Of a DNA stretch of 64,000 nucleotides, positions 4,671 to 47,064 are shown piece by piece. How positions within the stretch are numbered: position 1 is the first letter of the stretch; the number at the start of each line of letters is the position of its first letter. Position numbers and translations under genes: made by a program. The DNA lies in NCBI GenBank assembly GCA_021773335.1, contig JAJFKG010000050.1, positions 1,682 to 65,681 on the forward strand. The letters are read 5' to 3'. The notes beneath the pieces were generated by a model. The model had not been told where the DNA came from. It was given only the letters and a program-made list of their open reading frames with translations, and made no database searches. The DNA comes from Gammaproteobacteria bacterium. GTDB lineage: Bacteria; Pseudomonadota; Gammaproteobacteria; JAJFKG01.

Positions 4671-5804
4671 ATGTCAGCCACTTTAGAACTCAGCAAGCAA
4701 TTAATCGCGCAAGAATCCATTACCCCAAATGATGCTGAATGTCAGCAAATCCTCGCTGCGCGTTTACAAGCCATGGGGTTTGAGATTCAACACTTACCCT
4801 TTGGAGATACGCACAATCTCTGGGCACGACGCGGTACTGCAAAGCCTTTATTTGTTTTTGCTGGTCATACTGACGTTGTCCCCACTGGACCATTAAAGGA
4901 ATGGACATCACCACCCTTTGTACCCACGATTCGTGATGGCTTTCTTTATGGACGTGGCGCTGCCGATATGAAAGGCAGCCTGGCTGCGATGGTTACTGCC
5001 TGTGAAGCATTTATAGCCGAGCATGCTAGCTATAATGGCTCTATCGCCTTATTGATTACCAGCGACGAAGAAGGTAAAGCTACCTATGGCACGCGCAAAG
5101 TTGTCGAATGGTTGCAGCAACAAGGCGAACAAATCGATATGTGCTTAGTTGGCGAACCCTCATCACATGAAAACGTCGGCGATGTGATCAAAAATGGTCG
5201 TCGTGGTTCACTCAGTGGCGAGTTAACCATCCATGGCAAACAAGGCCATATCGCCTATCCACATTTGGCCGACAATCCGATTCACAAAGCATTAAAAGCG
5301 TTGGATGAATTGTGTAGTACCTTGTGGGACACAGGTAATGATTCATTTCCCGCGACGAGTTTTCAGATTGCTAATGTTAATGCTGGCACAGGTGCTACGA
5401 ATATCATTCCAGGCGAATTGCAGCTTCAGTTTAATTTTCGTTATTCAACCGCAGTCACTAGTGATGTACTGAAACACCGCGTCATCACCATTCTCGACAA
5501 ACATAATCTTAACTATGCTATAGATTGGCACTGCAGTGGACAACCCTTCTTAACTAATAATGGTGCATTACTGCAGGCTGTTCGTGATGCAATTGCCGAT
5601 GTCACTGGCCTGCAAACCCAAGTCTTGACCACAGGTGGCACTTCCGATGGACGTTTCATCGCGCCTACTGGCGCTCAAGTTGTTGAACTCGGCCCTGTTA
5701 ATCGCACCATTCATCAAATTGACGAATGCGTGCGCATCGAAGATTTGGATATCTTAAGCGAGCTTTACCAACGTATTCTGCAACTCACTCTGGTTTCATC
5801 CTGA
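4671..5804 (+). CDS. dapE: Succinyl-diaminopimelate desuccinylase
   Basis: [36 protein letters not shown]; adjacent to dapD. Confidence 0.97.
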
Positions 5805-6413
5805 GCAGACATATCCCCACGAATAAAGCCTTAAAGTAGCCGACTGTCTCTGCGTCAAGCCCAGATGTAGCCTTGATAAGGCGCATAACGGCGCATCTCA
5901 AGGCTACATCTGGGCTTGACGCAGAAGCCGTAGCCTTGATAAGCACCGAAGGTGCGCATCAAGGGCCTGAGTTGGCAAATGCTGCTCCTTGACGCGTCGC
6001 TACGCGGCTTATCAAGGCTACATTAGCATTTATTCCTAGGTAAACCGTCGCCCGGATAAGCGCGGCACGCGCGTCATCCGGGGAGGTTGTTAGCGATTGC
6101 TGTTCCCGGATGACGTTGCTGCGCAACTTATCCGGGCTACATCTGAGCTTGACGCAGAAGCCGTAGCCTTGATAAGCACCGAAGGTGCGCATCAAGGGCC
6201 TGAGTTGGCAAATGCTGCTCCTTGATGCGCCGCTACGCGGCTTATCAAGGCTACATTAGCTACATTAGCATTTGTTCCTACGTAAGCCGTCGCCCGGATA
6301 AGCGCGGCACGCGCGTCATCCGGGGAGGGTGTTTGCGATTGCGGTTCCCGGATGACGTTGCTGCGCAACTTATCCGGGCTACATCTGAGCTTGACTAGAA
6401 GACAGTAGTCTAC
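5796..6413. repeat. Composite REP array (BIME-like): nested termini plus two tandem units alternating family-A and family-B GTAG REP doublets
   Basis: REP-A is GTAGCCTTGATAAG...CATCAAGG and REP-B is GTAGCCCGGATAAG...CATCCGGG, each in inverted pairs. Repeat units start at 5903, 6136 and 6378 (233 and 242 bp). Perfect 28-bp inverted arms at 5849-5876 and 5898-5925. Confidence 0.9.
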
Positions 6414-6529
6414 GTGGTAGCGCGCTTTTGTCGCCTTGATAAGCTCTGGATGGTGAGAGAATACAAAAGCCAATGCTTTTAAGGTATCATCTTGCACAGC
6501 AAAATAAACCCCAAGGATCAGGCTTTAAA

Positions 6530-11435: not shown

Positions 11436-11484
11436 ATTTATTCACGAAGAGTCCCATCGCTCTGCGGTAAGACCCAATCCTTTT

Positions 11485-11747
11485 CCCGGATGACGCGCGT
11501 ACCGCGCTTATCCGGGCTACGGCTCTATTGTCTCTGCCTCAAGCCCAGATGTAGCCCGAATAAGTTGCGCAGCAACGTCATCCGGGAACAGCAATGGCAA
11601 ACACTCTTCCCGGATGACGCGCGGGCCGCGCTTATCCGGGCTACGGCTCTATTGTCTCTGCCTCAAGCCCAGATGTAGCCCGGATAAGTTGCGTAGCAAC
11701 GTCATCCGGGAACAGCAATGGCAAACACTCTTCCCGGATGACGCGCG
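11485..11747. repeat. Tandem 124-bp units of spacer plus family-B REP doublet
   Basis: GGCTCTATTGTCTCTGCCTCAAGCCCAGATGTAGCCC occurs at 11521 and 11645. Confidence 0.88.
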
Positions 11748-11799
11748 TACCTCTTCATCTCTTTAACAACCGTTGAACTGACGTATGGGGAACGCTATG
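11748..11799. mobile_element. Isolated end of the IS4-like MITE
   Basis: 49/52 identical to 46956-47007; ends in TATGGGGAACGCTATG. Confidence 0.6.
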
Positions 11800-11871
11800 C
11801 CCACAGGGATGGGACGAGGCCCCCCATTTCTTTATACGCCAGATAACAGATGTGCTATACTTGCCCACATT

Positions 11872-19122: not shown

Positions 19123-19302
19123 TGTCATCCTGCCTGTCCCTGTGGAGGGCACAACGAAGGATCTTTTTGGTTTACTACGGTGCGAAAACAAAAAGATCCT
19201 TCGTTTTGGAAATTCTCAGTGTTGCCATTAGCTAACTACAAACCAACGCACAAACAACGATGCCTTTGTTATGGGGTCAAGATGACAAACGCTCAGGATA
19301 AC
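19123..19302. repeat. Degenerate TGTC/CGTC-type REP doublet between convergent genes (possible bidirectional terminator)
   Basis: Outer ends TGTCATCCTG and GCTCAGGATAAC. Perfect 17-bp inverted repeat AACGAAGGATCTTTTTG at 19153-19169 and 19189-19205. Confidence 0.7.
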
Positions 19303-31651: not shown

Positions 31652-35850
<4,199 letters not shown>

Positions 35851-35861
<11 letters not shown>

Positions 35862-36262
35862 GCTGACGTATCCTCACGAATTTTTTTTCAAATTTACTTA
35901 AAATAAATGTCACTCGTGTAGCCTACTGTCTTCTAGTCAAGCTCAGATGTAGCCCGGATAAGTGGCGCAGCAACGTCATCCGGGAACAGCAATCGCAAAC
36001 AACCTCCCCGGATGACGCGCGTGCCGCGCTTATCCGAGCTACGGCTACCGTCTTCTAGTCAAGCTCAGATGTAGCCCGGATAAGTTGCGCAGCAACGTCA
36101 TCCGGGAACCGCAATCGCAAACAACCTCCCCGGATGACGCGCGGGCCGCGCTTATCCGGGCTACGGCTACTACATCTGGGCTTGACGCTGAGACAGTAGT
36201 CTACAAATGAATCAAACCTACCTTAAGACTTTATTCGTGGGGATTCATCAGCTCAGGGCGAC
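35851..36262. mobile_element. Complete nested composite palindromic element: three pairs of inverted termini around two family-B REP doublets
   Basis: Left termini from 35851 to 35948 are mirrored by 36174-36262. REP doublets at 35949-36042 and 36071-36164 (122-bp period). Confidence 0.85.
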
Positions 36263-36370
36263 AACAGTGGTAGAGAGACCAAAAAGACATGCACCTAAAA
36301 TTTGCTAAAAAGCATTTTTTCAGGCAGAATTCCACCGCTTTTGGAGTAAGATAGGTTAAAAGAGAGCTAA

Positions 36371-36592
36371 ATGGCTAAAGAAGAACACATTGAAATGGAA
36401 GGCGTTGTCCTTGAAACGCTACCGAATACCATGTTTCGCGTCGAGCTGGAAAATGGTCACGTCGTGACGGCCCACATTTCTGGGCGCATGCGCAAAAACT
36501 ACATCCGCATTTTGACCGGGGACAAAGTCCGCGTGCAACTCACTCCATACGATCTGAGCAAGGGTCGTATCGTTTATAGAGATAAAGACTAA
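36371..36592 (+). CDS. infA: Translation initiation factor IF-1
   Basis: [11 protein letters not shown]...[14 protein letters not shown]. Confidence 0.98.
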
Positions 36593-36610
36593 TTTCAGAC
36601 TGTACTTCAT

Positions 36611-36640
36611 AAAAAACGCGGCATGTAGCCGCGCTTTTTA
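36611..36640. terminator. Bidirectional intrinsic terminator between infA and clpA
   Basis: AAAAAA-CGCGGC-ATGTA-GCCGCG-CTTTTT. Confidence 0.8.
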
Positions 36641-36668
36641 TTCGTTGTGAAATGAGATCAAGCAAGTG

Positions 36669-39005
36669 CTATTCAATTTCTTCCGTTTTATTATTCGGCT
36701 TAGATTGCTTAGCACTATCATCGGGCTTAACCTCAAAAACCAATTCACCCTCTTTTTCACTTAAGCTGACATGCCCACCTTTAGCAAGCTCGCCAAACAG
36801 AATTTCATCAGCCAAGTGTTTTTTGATTTGCTCTTGAATCAGACGCGCCATTGGACGAGCACCCATTGCCGGATCATAACCTTTTTCAGCCAACCAATGT
36901 TTCGCATCCTCATCGACTGAAAGGGTCACACCTTTTTGTTCAAGCTGTACTTCGAACTCAGCCAACAGTTTATCAACAACCATACTGATGGTATCTTCAT
37001 CCAAGGCTTTAAATTGGATAATGCCGTCAAGTCGGTTACGGAATTCAGGCGAGAAGGTGCGCCCAATCGCTTCCATACCGTCTGTACTGTGATCTTGTTC
37101 GGTAAAACCAATCGAGCGACGACTGACTGTTGCTGCGCCCGCATTACTGGTCATGACTAAGATAACATGACGGAAATCCGCTTTGCGCCCGTTATTGTCC
37201 GTCAAAGTACCATGATCCATGACTTGTAATAAGATATTAAAAATCTCTGGGTGTGCTTTTTCAATTTCATCGAGCAGCAACACTGAATGCGGATGTTTAG
37301 TTACTGCTTCCGTTAATTGGCCACCTTGATCATAGCCAACATAACCTGGAGGTGCACCGATCAAACGTGACACAGCGTGGCTTTCCATATATTCCGACAT
37401 GTCAAAACGTAACAACTCGACACCCAATAAATTAGCAAGCTGACGTGTCACTTCGGTTTTACCAACCCCGGTAGGTCCAGCAAATAAGAAGCTGCCCACG
37501 GGTTTATTGGGATCATTCAAACCTGAACGTGACAGTTTAATCGCTGCCGCCAATGACATGATTGCTTCATCCTGCCCAAACACCAACATTTTAAGATCGC
37601 GCTCAAGATTTTTGAGGGTATCGCGGTCTGAAGAAGAAATTTTCTTCTCGGGGATACGTGCCATCTTAGCGATGATGGCTTCAATTTCGGCAACGCCAAT
37701 GGTTTTTTTGCGTTTTGACGTAGCCAATAAGGCTTGGTGCGCCCCTGCTTCGTCAACCACATCAATCGCTTTATCTGGCAAAAAGCGATCAGTAATATAA
37801 CGGTCTGAAAGCTCTGCAGCAGCACGCATTGCCGGCATGGTGTATTTAAGGCAATGATGTTCTTCGAATCGATCTTTCAAGCCCTTGAGGATTTCCACAG
37901 TATCTTCGACCGAAGGCTCTAACACATCAATCTTTTGAAAGCGTCTCGCCAAGGCGTGATCTTTTTCAAAAATACTGCGATATTCATCATAAGTCGTCGA
38001 ACCAATACAACGTAATTCACCGTTAGACAACAAGGGCTTAATCAAATTCGAGGCATCCATGACACCACCTGAGGCAGCACCTGCACCAATAATGGTATGA
38101 ATTTCATCGATGAATAGGATCGAATGAGGTTCATCACGCAATTGCCCTAGCACGGCTTTGAGGCGTTTTTCAAAATCACCACGATATTTAGTTCCCGCTA
38201 ATAAAGCACCAAGATCAAGTGAATAAACAGTACTATTGGCAATGGGTTCTGGCACATTACCTTCAACGATCAATTTCGCTAAACCTTCTGCAATCGCAGT
38301 CTTGCCGACGCCAGCTTCACCAACCAGCAAGGGGTTATTTTTACGACGACGACCCAACACTTGAACCGCACGCAAAACTTCATCTTTACGCCCGATAAGG
38401 GGATCAATATTTCCCGCAAGCGCTTGTACATTGAGATTAGTTGCATAATTGGCAAGTGGGCTACCTTGACCACCAGTGCTACCGCCAACACCGGGTCCTT
38501 CGCCCTCTTCACCTTGACTTTCATCCTCGAGTGACTGTGGATTGCCGGGTTGCGAAGTCGGATCATTATTGATCTTAGAAATACCGTGTGAAATATAATT
38601 CACCACATCAAGGCGGGTGACATTTTCACGCTTTAAAAAGTAAACAGCATGGCTTTCTTGTTCACTGAAAATGGCTGCCAGCACATTCGCACCGGTCACT
38701 TCGTTTTTACCCGCAGATTGCACGTGGAAAACCGCGCGCTGTAAAACACGCTGAAAGCCCAAAGTAGGTTGGGTTTCACGATCGTCTTCATTCGCGGGAA
38801 TAATGGGTGTGGTTTCACCAATAAATTTGCCGAGTTCCGTGCGCAACTGGCCGAGATTGGCTCCACAAGCGCGTAACACACTCGCTGCCGCCGAATTGTC
38901 GAGCAGAGCTAATAATAAATGTTCCACGGTCATGAATTCATGACGCCTATCCCTGGCTTCTTTGAAAGCCAAATTTAGCGTGAATTCAAGTTCTTTATCT
39001 AACAT
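36669..39005 (-). CDS. clpA: ATP-dependent Clp protease ATPase subunit
   Basis: [13 protein letters not shown]; two Walker A motifs, GEAGVGKT and GPTGVGKT. Confidence 0.97.
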
Positions 39006-41144: not shown

Positions 41145-41344
41145 TGTTATCCTGAGCTGGTGATTCCCCACGAATATGTGCATGAATAGAAATATAAGCC
41201 TGAGTATAGACTACTGTCTTTGCGTCAAGCCCAGATGTAGCCTTGATAAGCGCCACCGGCGCGCATCAAGGGAATGTATTAGCAAAGACTGATCCTTGAT
41301 GCGCCGCTACGCGGCTTATCAAGGCTACAAAACTCAGGGTGACG
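41145..41344. mobile_element. Nested composite element with a family-A REP doublet, in the icd/mnmA divergent region
   Basis: Order is TGTTATCCTGAGC, TCCCCACGAATA, TAGACTACTGTCTTTGCGTCAAGCCCAGAT, REP-A doublet (41237-41328), CTCAGGGTGACG. Confidence 0.8.
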
Positions 41345-46667: not shown

Positions 46668-46710
46668 AGGGTTGCTTGAAGCGAGGATTTTGCGCACCCT
46701 CAGTGCACAG

Positions 46711-47007
46711 CATAGCGTTCCCCATAAAAACTGGGCAAAGCCTACAGATATCACAGAAGATACCGCCTATAAATTGGTTATATGCAATCCTGTAGCCTAC
46801 TGTCTTTGGGTCAAGCCCAGAGGTAGCCCGGATAAGTGGCGCAGCAACGTCATCCGGGAACAGCAATGGCAAACACTCTCCCCGGATGACGCGCGTGCCG
46901 CGCTTATCCGGGCTACCTGTGTGGCAATGATTGACAATAATAAGCCAACCAGCGATACCTCATCATCTCTTTAACAACCGTTGAACTGACTTATGGGGGA
47001 CGCTATG
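46711..47007. mobile_element. 297-bp IS4-like MITE carrying a family-B REP doublet
   Basis: TIRs CATAGCGTTCCCCATAA and TTATGGGGGACGCTATG match at 16/17. Flanks GTGCACAG and GGGCACAG are a possible 8-bp target-site duplication. Confidence 0.7.
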
Positions 47008-47064
47008 GGGCACAGACCGAGCGAGGCGTCTTTTAATTTTGGCGAAGGAGCGCTTTTGAACATC

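Follow-up and report, generated by a model that had tools for sequence, protein, structure and literature searches.

The spacer between an aat-like and an infA-like open reading frame (ORF) of a gammaproteobacterial genome, here called G000, holds a nest of inverted repeats at positions 35851-36262 of the 64,000-nt stretch of DNA that was analyzed (the window, C45:1682-65681 in a 2.86-Mb assembly of 61 contigs with 44.7% GC). Four layers, L1 to L4, can be followed from the outside inward. The nest probably consists of three independent repeat systems of known kinds that accreted in one intergenic spacer. Its layered grammar, which the initial annotation of the window had considered undescribed, needs no new system. 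L4 is a system of repetitive extragenic palindromes (REPs) paired as REP doublets forming hairpins (REPINs) with their REP-associated tyrosine transposases (RAYTs), L3 behaves like the linkers of bacterial interspersed mosaic elements (BIMEs), and L2 is, judged by its sequence, the end of an IS4-family miniature transposable element with inverted repeats (MITE). Suitable annotations for the locus are REPIN/BIME arrays, an IS4-family MITE and, for L1, a probable CGTC-type REP head. This reading builds on directly observed repeat families, counts, order and junctions, on RAYT and IS4-family transposase genes, and on a target duplication observed in another genome. Loci elsewhere in the assembly are given as contig:position, the signs > and < give the orientation of a motif, and a caret marks a junction or cleavage point.

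Structure of the nest

A repeat search of positions 35800-36300 recovered two inverted pairs, one of 25 nt that corresponds to L1 plus L2 (35857-35881 and 36233-36257, 88% complementary) and one of 36 nt that corresponds to L3 (35917-35952 and 36170-36205, 83% complementary). The search also returned the REP doublets of L4 and a tandem duplication of 122 nt (35923-36044 and 36045-36166, 96% identical). Folded as single-stranded DNA, the 412 nt form one nested hairpin of -108 kcal/mol; the mean of 100 shuffled sequences was -55.5 (z = -11.1), and no shuffle folded as well. The nesting of inverted repeats at 35851-36262 is genuine and far exceeds chance. Spacers between layers had been reported, but L1 and L2 are contiguous, with zero spacer, and therefore make up one 30-nt terminus at this locus.

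A long hairpin with nested arms could also be produced by fold-back duplication, in which template switching at a palindromic REP doublet copied the flanks in inverted orientation and so fixed their order. The whole 412 nt do form one hairpin, the REP doublets offer palindromic centers, and target duplications are absent. The arms, however, are not mirror images. Linker i, inward of the left L2, is 36 nt long and unrelated to linker ii on the right, which has 11 nt followed by another 17 nt, and this asymmetry recurs in other copies bounded by L2. Moreover, the arms are only 83-88% complementary, and L3 is one-sided in 97 of the 105 clusters that contain it. Fold-back duplication is very improbable and was rejected as the origin of the nest because the linkers are asymmetric.

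REP families and their transposases

The two commonest 14-mers of G000, GTAGCCCGGATAAG (191 exact copies) and GTAGCCTTGATAAG (188 exact copies), are REP heads. When up to two mismatches are allowed, the genome contains 262 heads of the family REPa and 276 of the family REPb. These are GTAG-tagged imperfect palindromes in hundreds of copies, as REPs are defined. Motifs that lay within 150 bp of each other were grouped into 245 clusters. In another count, of 247 clusters, 22 read 'B> B<', 14 read 'A> A< K<', 10 read 'B> B< K<' and 8 read 'A> A<', where A and B are REPa and REPb heads and K is the L3 motif; these strings are among the most frequent.

No transposase is encoded in the window, as had been noted before, but two RAYTs and an IS4-family transposase are encoded elsewhere in G000. 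Four Y1-transposase matches were found in the genome, none of them in the window. Two of the proteins, of 175 and 177 aa, score 171 bits each against NF047646 (REP-associated tyrosine transposase; cut-off 80) and share 51% identity. The RAYT gene on C26 has REPa on both sides. The RAYT gene on C50 is preceded by REPb< K< and followed by K> REPb> REPb<, with the K heads nearest to the gene. L4 is two GTAG-REP families, each with its own RAYT elsewhere in G000, that is, a REPIN/RAYT system.

A 217-aa Y1-transposase-like ORF also lies within C53:115824-119135. The surrounding DNA seems much more GC-rich, judged from the ORF translations, and may be foreign or bin contamination (the estimated contamination is 2.43%).

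The L3 leader

L3 is a 31-nt motif, K. Genome-wide Hamming scans, with the reversed genome as control, found 137-138 copies of K in G000 and none in the reversed genome. A REP head on the same strand abuts 119 of the 138 copies, and another K abuts five. The variant TCTAG precedes REPa in a ratio of 28:1, and the variants TTGCG and CTGCG precede REPb in a ratio of 40:15. Since the K variants track the REP family, K and its REP appear to propagate together. The DNA upstream of K is mostly unique; within tandem arrays K follows the CTAC of the REP before it.

Facing pairs of K occur in 8 of the 105 K clusters. Otherwise K is one-sided or in direct tandem, for example at 11521 and 46792; both of these loci had been described as L3 enclosing L4, and the two layers are indeed present there, but K is not an inverted terminus at either. 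Past L2, K or a REP starts at a fixed offset, which is 11 nt where linker ii is present and 35-36 nt where it is linker i. That either one starts at the same base after the linkers suggests that K is an optional module joined at GTAG. K begins with GTAG-CC^TAC, and the modules of the array all meet at a GTAG or a CTAC. K also sets the 122-nt tandem period.

In Escherichia coli, the transposase TnpA-REP needs the 5' GTAG of the REP and cuts CC^TAC within CTAC as well as C^T in the linker (PMC3333891). It recombines BIMEs in vitro, the BIME families have conserved linkers and tandem copies, and a model for their amplification has been proposed (PMC3333891). L3 behaves as a BIME-style linker or leader of the REP unit, not as a general terminus. 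Its likeness to BIME linkers is one of behavior and grammar, without sequence homology.

L2 is an IS10-type end

The insertion sequence (IS) IS10/ISVsa5 has the outside end CTGATGAATCCCCTAATGA and the inside end CTGAGAGATCCCCTCATAA in an annotated plasmid copy. The first 13 of 13 bases of the right L2, CTGATGAATCCCCACGAAT, equal those of the IS10 outside end, which has the form CTGA-N3-ATCCCC. IS10-type ends start at CTGA, and the junction with L1 is CCTGAG^CTGA. The entry of L2 had been placed after CTGAGC, which is right within one base. By this comparison, L2 is an IS4-family (IS10-type) MITE end.

Nearly empty forms of the MITE are about 100-160 bp long. The copies at C46:157724-157821 (98 bp) and C35:313506 (~105 bp) contain a central GTAG-CC motif, and the copy at C57:1848-1970 (123 bp) has a single REPb at its center. 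Bounded copies share the same two unlike subterminal linkers, i (36 nt) and ii (11 nt). Linker i also follows L2 in C57, C58, C21, C35:177773 and C35:304412, and linker ii follows 14 of the 30 L2 ends. That two unlike linkers recur speaks for a genuine MITE rather than an origin by fold-back. A search of the open-access literature returned no relevant report of REP arrays inside IS4-family MITEs, which is not proof of absence.

L2 ends occur in other genomes as well. A 22-nt L2 pattern was searched with up to two mismatches in 401 genomes sampled across the class, with the backwards pattern as control. It was found in nine genomes including G000, with counts of 1-38, and the control gave 0 in all 401. 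No copy was found in the two genomes of the same family. In G158, G088 and G091 the L2 copies lie at contig ends, like collapsed multicopy ISs; the full IS behind the L2 ends of G158 was not recovered, as each of its five copies is cut off where the contig ends. In G322, 19 nt separate an L2 end from the C-terminus of an IS4-family transposase (NF033591, E = 1.3e-33). This protein is a fragment, the last 144 codons, scores below the full-length cut-off of NF033591, and is 40-43% identical to ISVsa5-type transposases on plasmids. The DDE_Tnp_1 genes of G210 and G005 have no L2 ends at their borders. The initial annotation had suggested looking for copies of the layers that flank a transposase ORF. 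L2 lies beside the fragment in G322 and K on both sides of the RAYT gene on C50; no cognate transposase of L2 was found in G000.

The closed genome G278 contains 64 L2 ends, which pair into MITEs of 107-373 bp. Fifteen pairings were examined, two of which share a right end. The flanking 8 nt form a direct repeat with 8/8 matches in three pairings, 7/8 in four and ≤6/8 in eight. Locus L079 was read directly as TGTCATTGCGCTC-CTCGCAAT^MITE^CTCGCAAT-GACA, with the right flank CTCGCAATGACA. The MITE at this locus sits in a small GTCATTGCG...CGCAATGAC hairpin and has an 8-bp target duplication. The cores of 12 of the 15 pairings contain a CGTC-type REP or REP dimer, single in the forms of 198-215 bp and dimeric in the forms of 255-278 bp. 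These cores suggest that a REP within an IS10-like MITE within a REP is a recurring property of the MITE family, with the REP type of the host in the core.

From the short to the long forms in G278, the REP was expanded to a dimer by ~63 nt (L079 positions 1225-1525 and other loci). This expansion parallels the growth of REP arrays seen in G000.

L1 and the insertion of IS4-family elements into REP heads

GTAG and CGTC repeats are REP superfamilies. In CGTC-tagged REPs a CGTC or TGTC tag precedes a short stem beginning with AT; these REPs often occur as head-out dimers and are not known to have a transposase (PMC3733652). The consensus of L1 over 20 ends is GTCATCCTGAG. The hairpins of which L1 would be the head appear to fit the CGTC/TGTC-REP definition (PMC3733652), as the initial label of L1 implied; their stem is interrupted. 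About eight free copies of GTCATCCTGAGCGTAGCGAAGGAT... and cGTCATCCTGAGCGTAGCGAAGGATGAC-type hairpins are present in G000, including an 88-nt head-out pair at C35:197233-197310 and the ends of an element of ~180 nt in the window, at 19123-19302. The heads that bound this element are of the same family as L1; it has the ends GTCATCCTG... and, inward, GTTATCCTGAGCG... and an internal GAAGGATC...GATCCTTC hairpin. A 321-aa Y1-transposase-like gene on C48 was considered as the enzyme of L1 and rejected, as no CGTC-type hairpins lie beside it.

In G158 one IS end has two kinds of flank, ending in GTCATCCTGAG and CGCTCAGGAT; each corresponds to one half of such a hairpin. The split hairpin in G158 and the target duplication in G278 indicate that L1 lies outside the transposed segment in those genomes. 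In G278, L1 is plainly an insertion target. In G000, by contrast, L1 can be inverted on both sides (A/A flanks), a form shared by one G278 pairing. One possible route to exactly this product in G000 is insertion into each REP of a head-out dimer and a later deletion between the two MITE copies.

A second IS4-family element of G000 also uses REP heads. The IS at C60:103691-105044 encodes a 425-aa IS4-family transposase (304 bits against NF033591, 40% identical to ISVsa5) and has the ends CTGACAAATCGGCGCGAAAT and CTGAGAGATCGGCGCGAATT. Eighteen of the 20 ends of this resident IS with a visible flank, solo or MITE-like ends included, directly abut GTAGCCCGGAT or CTTATCCGGGCT, or the REPb equivalents. 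These flanks imply a 9-bp duplication, AGCCCGGAT, inside REP heads, which has to be deduced because all full copies are split over contigs. REPs are known as targets of ISs from five families, including the IS4-family ISRm22 (PMC1525189). The suggestion that the layers form a hierarchy of elements entering one another is partly right: it holds for the resident IS in REP heads and for the G278 MITE in a CGTC-type REP.

At C25:18021, C35:12588, C25:13194 and C47:171178, hairpins of a conserved family (GGTCCCGACCCTCTAGGGTTGGGACC and variants) come after solo ends of the resident IS; this family may be another small repeat that pairs with IS ends.

Order of the layers in G000

A 25-nt pattern of L1 plus L2 has 33 matches in G000 and one in the reversed genome; by a stricter definition there are 30 L2 ends. 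Of the 245 clusters, 25 contain L2, 105 contain K and 235 contain REPs. In the 17 clusters that contain L2 together with another motif, L2 is outermost and points inward at 23 of 23 ends, and K is the motif adjoining L2 in all nine clusters that hold both. Eight clusters consist of L2 alone. No L2 is present in 96 of the 105 K clusters, and neither K nor L2 in 124 of the 235 REP clusters; only 16 of the 138 K motifs and 52 of the 538 REP heads lie inside L2 clusters. The initial annotation described four nested inverted termini in a fixed order, and named random order, or layers that mostly occur alone, as evidence against this. The order is not random, but the layers are mostly alone, L3 is rarely inverted, and L1 and L2 are one terminus.

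Only five clusters, of 98-389 bp, have L2 on both sides. One of them is empty, one holds a REPb, one a REPb doublet, one K with a REPa doublet and a REPb, and the last is the array of the present locus, which has two K-REPa doublets plus a reversed K. The cargo thus differs at every locus, as first noted. All the layers are present on both sides at this locus only. At 5796 and 41145, where the full order had been reported to recur, it is found on the left side only. The array at 5795-6443 has no L2 on the right, and in the array at 41146-41343 the right L1 (CTCAGGGTGAC, 41333-41343) directly abuts the REP, without L2.

Coordinates of the layers, of related arrays and of the flanking ORFs are given in Table 1. 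In the window at 11730-11800 and 46700-47010, a further repeat family with ends like CATAGCGTTCCCCATA... and ...TCATCTCTTTAACAACCGTTGAACTGACGTATGGGGAACGCTATG adjoins REP arrays and looks like another MITE.

Table 1. Features of the nest at 35851-36262, other arrays in the window and neighboring ORFs. Positions are those of the window.
Feature	Position	Strand	Description
L1-left, GCCATCCTGAG	35852..35862	+	CGTC/TGTC-tagged REP-like hairpin head; outer 11 nt of MITE terminus
L2-left, CTGACGTATCCTCACGAAT	35863..35881	+	IS10-type (IS4 family) terminal inverted repeat, from comparison with IS10/ISVsa5 ends
Linker i	35882..35917	+	Subterminal linker of MITE, 36 nt, AT-rich, stops exactly at GTAG
K (L3)	35918..35948	+	Leader, variant TCTAG, abutting GTAG head of REPa
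First REPa doublet	35949..36042		REPIN-like; REPa> 35949-35984, 22-nt spacer, REPa< 36007-36042
Second K	36040..36070	+	Tandem; head replaced by CTAC-GGCTAC junction with preceding REP
Second REPa doublet	36071..36164		Arms 36071-36106 and 36129-36164
K (L3), reversed	36174..36204	-	Facing inward
Linker ii	36205..36232	-	Subterminal linker of MITE plus degenerate REPb-like head (GTAGGTTTGATTC)
L2-right, inward CTGATGAATCCCCACGAAT	36233..36251	-	First 13 nt identical to IS10 outside end
L1-right, inward GTCGCCCTGAG	36252..36262	-	8/11 inverted match to L1-left
Second array	5795..6443 (C45:7488-8124)		L1+L2>, linker ii, K>, ten REP heads (both families), K<, REPb head
Third array	41146..41343		L1+L2>, third linker type, K>, REPb doublet, L1-right
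Direct tandem array of K + REPa doublets	11470..11750		K as linker, not terminus
One-sided K + REPa doublet	46792..46916	+	
aat	35157..35861	+	Leucyl/phenylalanyl-tRNA-protein transferase-like ORF, 234 aa, from the ORF list; name as in the initial annotation
infA-like ORF	36371..36592	+	Downstream neighbor, 73 aa, from the ORF list

Setting of the locus

The nest lies between two ORFs on the + strand. The aat-like protein aligns with its relatives over residues ~3-233 at 42-59% identity, and the TGA stop codon of its gene (35859-35861) lies inside the left L1. This position, between two genes on the same strand, raises the alternative that a host function keeps the layers in order, the stacked hairpins acting as a stabilizer of RNA 3' ends, a terminator or a site for a nucleoid protein between aat and infA, as proposed for E. 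coli REPs and BIMEs. REPs are mostly located downstream of coding regions (PMC3733652), and the REPa doublet has a weak match to naRNA4, a REP-derived RNA of E. coli. That match is far below the Rfam threshold (27 bits against 59.5, E = 0.0098); at the gathering score, Rfam found nothing in the window but two tRNAs elsewhere. Only 3 of 28 L1 heads (those at aat, C58:23610 and C26:74610) have a TGA that serves as the stop codon of a long upstream ORF (≥80 aa), and L1 was rejected as a systematic supplier of stop codons. A host function would also leave unexplained the presence of the L2 end in eight other, distantly related genomes with different cores. As an explanation of the order it is improbable, and it is compatible with an origin by accretion.

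G000 is the sole member of its genus among the genomes searched. No close relative with an orthologous site was found: the best aat match among 40 relatives is 59% identical and the best in metagenome contigs 57%, and the two genomes of the same family yielded no aat with this query and none of the layers. Only four public runs contain the DNA, all of them biofilm metagenomes from one study; no RNA run with it is listed. Contigs of these runs join each unique flank to the outer layers (35490-35942 and 36139-36900). The inner array (35943-36138) is spanned by no public contig, so the number of tandem units is that of the G000 assembly. The contigs of the four runs gave no evidence of excised circles or alleles at the locus. 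A single joint that skips 319 nt was rejected as an allele; it contains 11 foreign letters, and the near-empty MITE at C35:313506, a paralogous copy, accounts for its loose ends by sequence match.

Origin of the nest

The inner layers, L4 and L3, would be a BIME-like array of REPIN-type REPa doublets, each unit with its own 31-nt K. The RAYTs of G000 may have built and amplified this array. By analogy with TnpA-REP of E. coli, they would act on single-stranded DNA, need a 5' GTAG and cut CC^TAC, and the 122-nt tandem copy would be a local amplification. L2 and its two unlike linkers would represent a small MITE descended from an IS10-like IS of the IS4 family. The GTAG or REPb-like head at the center of the MITE may have served as seed or landing site, at which REP arrays of varied content grew in place. 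L1 would be the head of a CGTC-tagged REP, into which this IS lineage would insert by preference.

The initial annotation offered one composite mobile unit as its second possibility. The nest would then be a non-autonomous element that runs from L1 to L1, with exchangeable inner modules and an enzyme that recognizes the 30-nt terminus. Several observations agree with such a unit. Of the 30 L2 ends in G000, 20 have L1 beside them in the same orientation (type A flank), one has the reversed form (type B) and nine have neither. L1 is inverted at both ends (8-10/11 matches) in three of the five bounded copies. The unlike linkers recur in these copies, and 318 nt of a second locus, C21:76465-76780, match the present one at 89%, from L1 through the K and REPa units. 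The cargo, however, is different in every bounded copy, no target duplication is present outside L1 in any of the five, and 122 of the 138 K motifs and 486 of the 538 REP heads lie in clusters without L2. The flanks in G158 and the duplication in G278 place L1 outside the transposed segment. A composite unit is unlikely on this evidence, though somewhat less so than a host function.

Several results weigh against the accretion proposed here. A target duplication of 8 or 9 bp is absent at the tips of L2 in all five bounded copies of G000 (3-6 of 8 positions match), as is a duplication outside L1. No cognate transposase for the L2 end was found in G000, where the ends of the resident IS (CTGACAAATCGGCGCGAAAT) are related to L2 but different from it. 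Simple insertion into a REP predicts equal numbers of type A and type B flanks, and the ratio of 20 to 1 indicates that L1 acts as part of the terminus in G000. Plain IS4-type insertion fails to explain the G000 copies. K, in turn, had no match in 400 other genomes of the class. The divergence from the consensus is 12% both for L1 plus L2 and for K, and 6% for the arms of REPa; these values are too alike to reveal an age gradient from the outside inward or to settle the order of arrival.

A wider scheme is doubtful, if less so than the composite unit. One IS10-like lineage would read REP heads, with a branch for GTAG heads and a sister branch for CGTC heads, and the core of its MITE would be a landing pad or nursery for any REP system active in the host. 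Three mutually parasitic systems would then be stacked in a fixed order. The MITE of G000 would have absorbed a REP head and would spread without target duplications by a non-classical IS4 route. The cores are GTAG REPINs in G000 and CGTC REP dimers in G278, and both IS branches enter 11 nt after the initial GT.

The recurrence of a REP-in-MITE-in-REP nest in a distant genome with other REPs hints at regular mutual exploitation between REP systems and an IS10-like lineage. The G000 copies, which lack duplications and carry an inverted target head at both ends, are not predicted by ordinary cut-and-paste transposition. Both points are relevant to the spread of REPs and to their attraction for ISs, questions that date from the description of REP-targeting ISs (PMC1525189).

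Comparison with known systems

The BIMEs of E. coli consist of REP and inverted REP (iREP) with conserved L and S linkers and the flanking motifs s, l and r (PMC3333891). The arrays of G000 share with these BIMEs and the TnpA-REP REPtron the GTAG-tagged imperfect palindromes in alternating orientation, with a conserved non-palindromic motif between or beside them, the tandem amplification at a locus (with a 122-nt period here), and the Y1 transposase gene bracketed by the same repeats (PMC3333891). K also starts with GTAG, and the CC^TAC that comes next is the motif at which TnpA-REP cleavage was mapped (PMC3333891). They differ in that K has no sequence homology to any E. coli motif, the REP has only a sub-threshold Rfam match, there are two REP families and two RAYTs, and K co-varies with the REP family and is also located at the outer edge of most arrays. 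In Pseudomonas fluorescens SBW25, as in G000, the inverted REP doublet is the unit and each family is paired with a single-copy RAYT (PMC3116915, PMC3337134). In contrast to the REPINs described in these reports, the common unit of G000 is asymmetric (K plus doublet), and part of the population is inside a MITE.

The end CTGA-N3-ATCCCC, with 13 of 13 first bases of the right L2 shared with the outside end, is that of IS10/ISVsa5, but the identity of the transposases to ISVsa5, or among themselves, is only 40-43%. The IS4-family transposase beside an L2 end in G322 and the 8-bp duplications in G278 are as expected of IS4-family MITEs, whereas the G000 copies have no duplications and an extra 11-nt inverted L1. 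Like the REP-targeting ISRm22, IS1397 and ISPpu9/10 (PMC1525189), the resident IS4-family element of G000 is found at one fixed point of the REP head (18 of 20 ends). Unlike the systems in that report, two sister lineages appear to be involved here, one in GTAG-REP heads and the other in heads of the CGTC type, each 11 nt past the initial GT, and one lineage became a REP-carrying MITE. Finally, the REP dimers GTAG-15 of A. variabilis and CGTC-1 of H. neapolitanus are, like those described here, regularly embedded in a longer conserved palindrome (PMC3733652). The outer palindrome of those species was not identified as a transposon end; here it is an IS10-type terminus.

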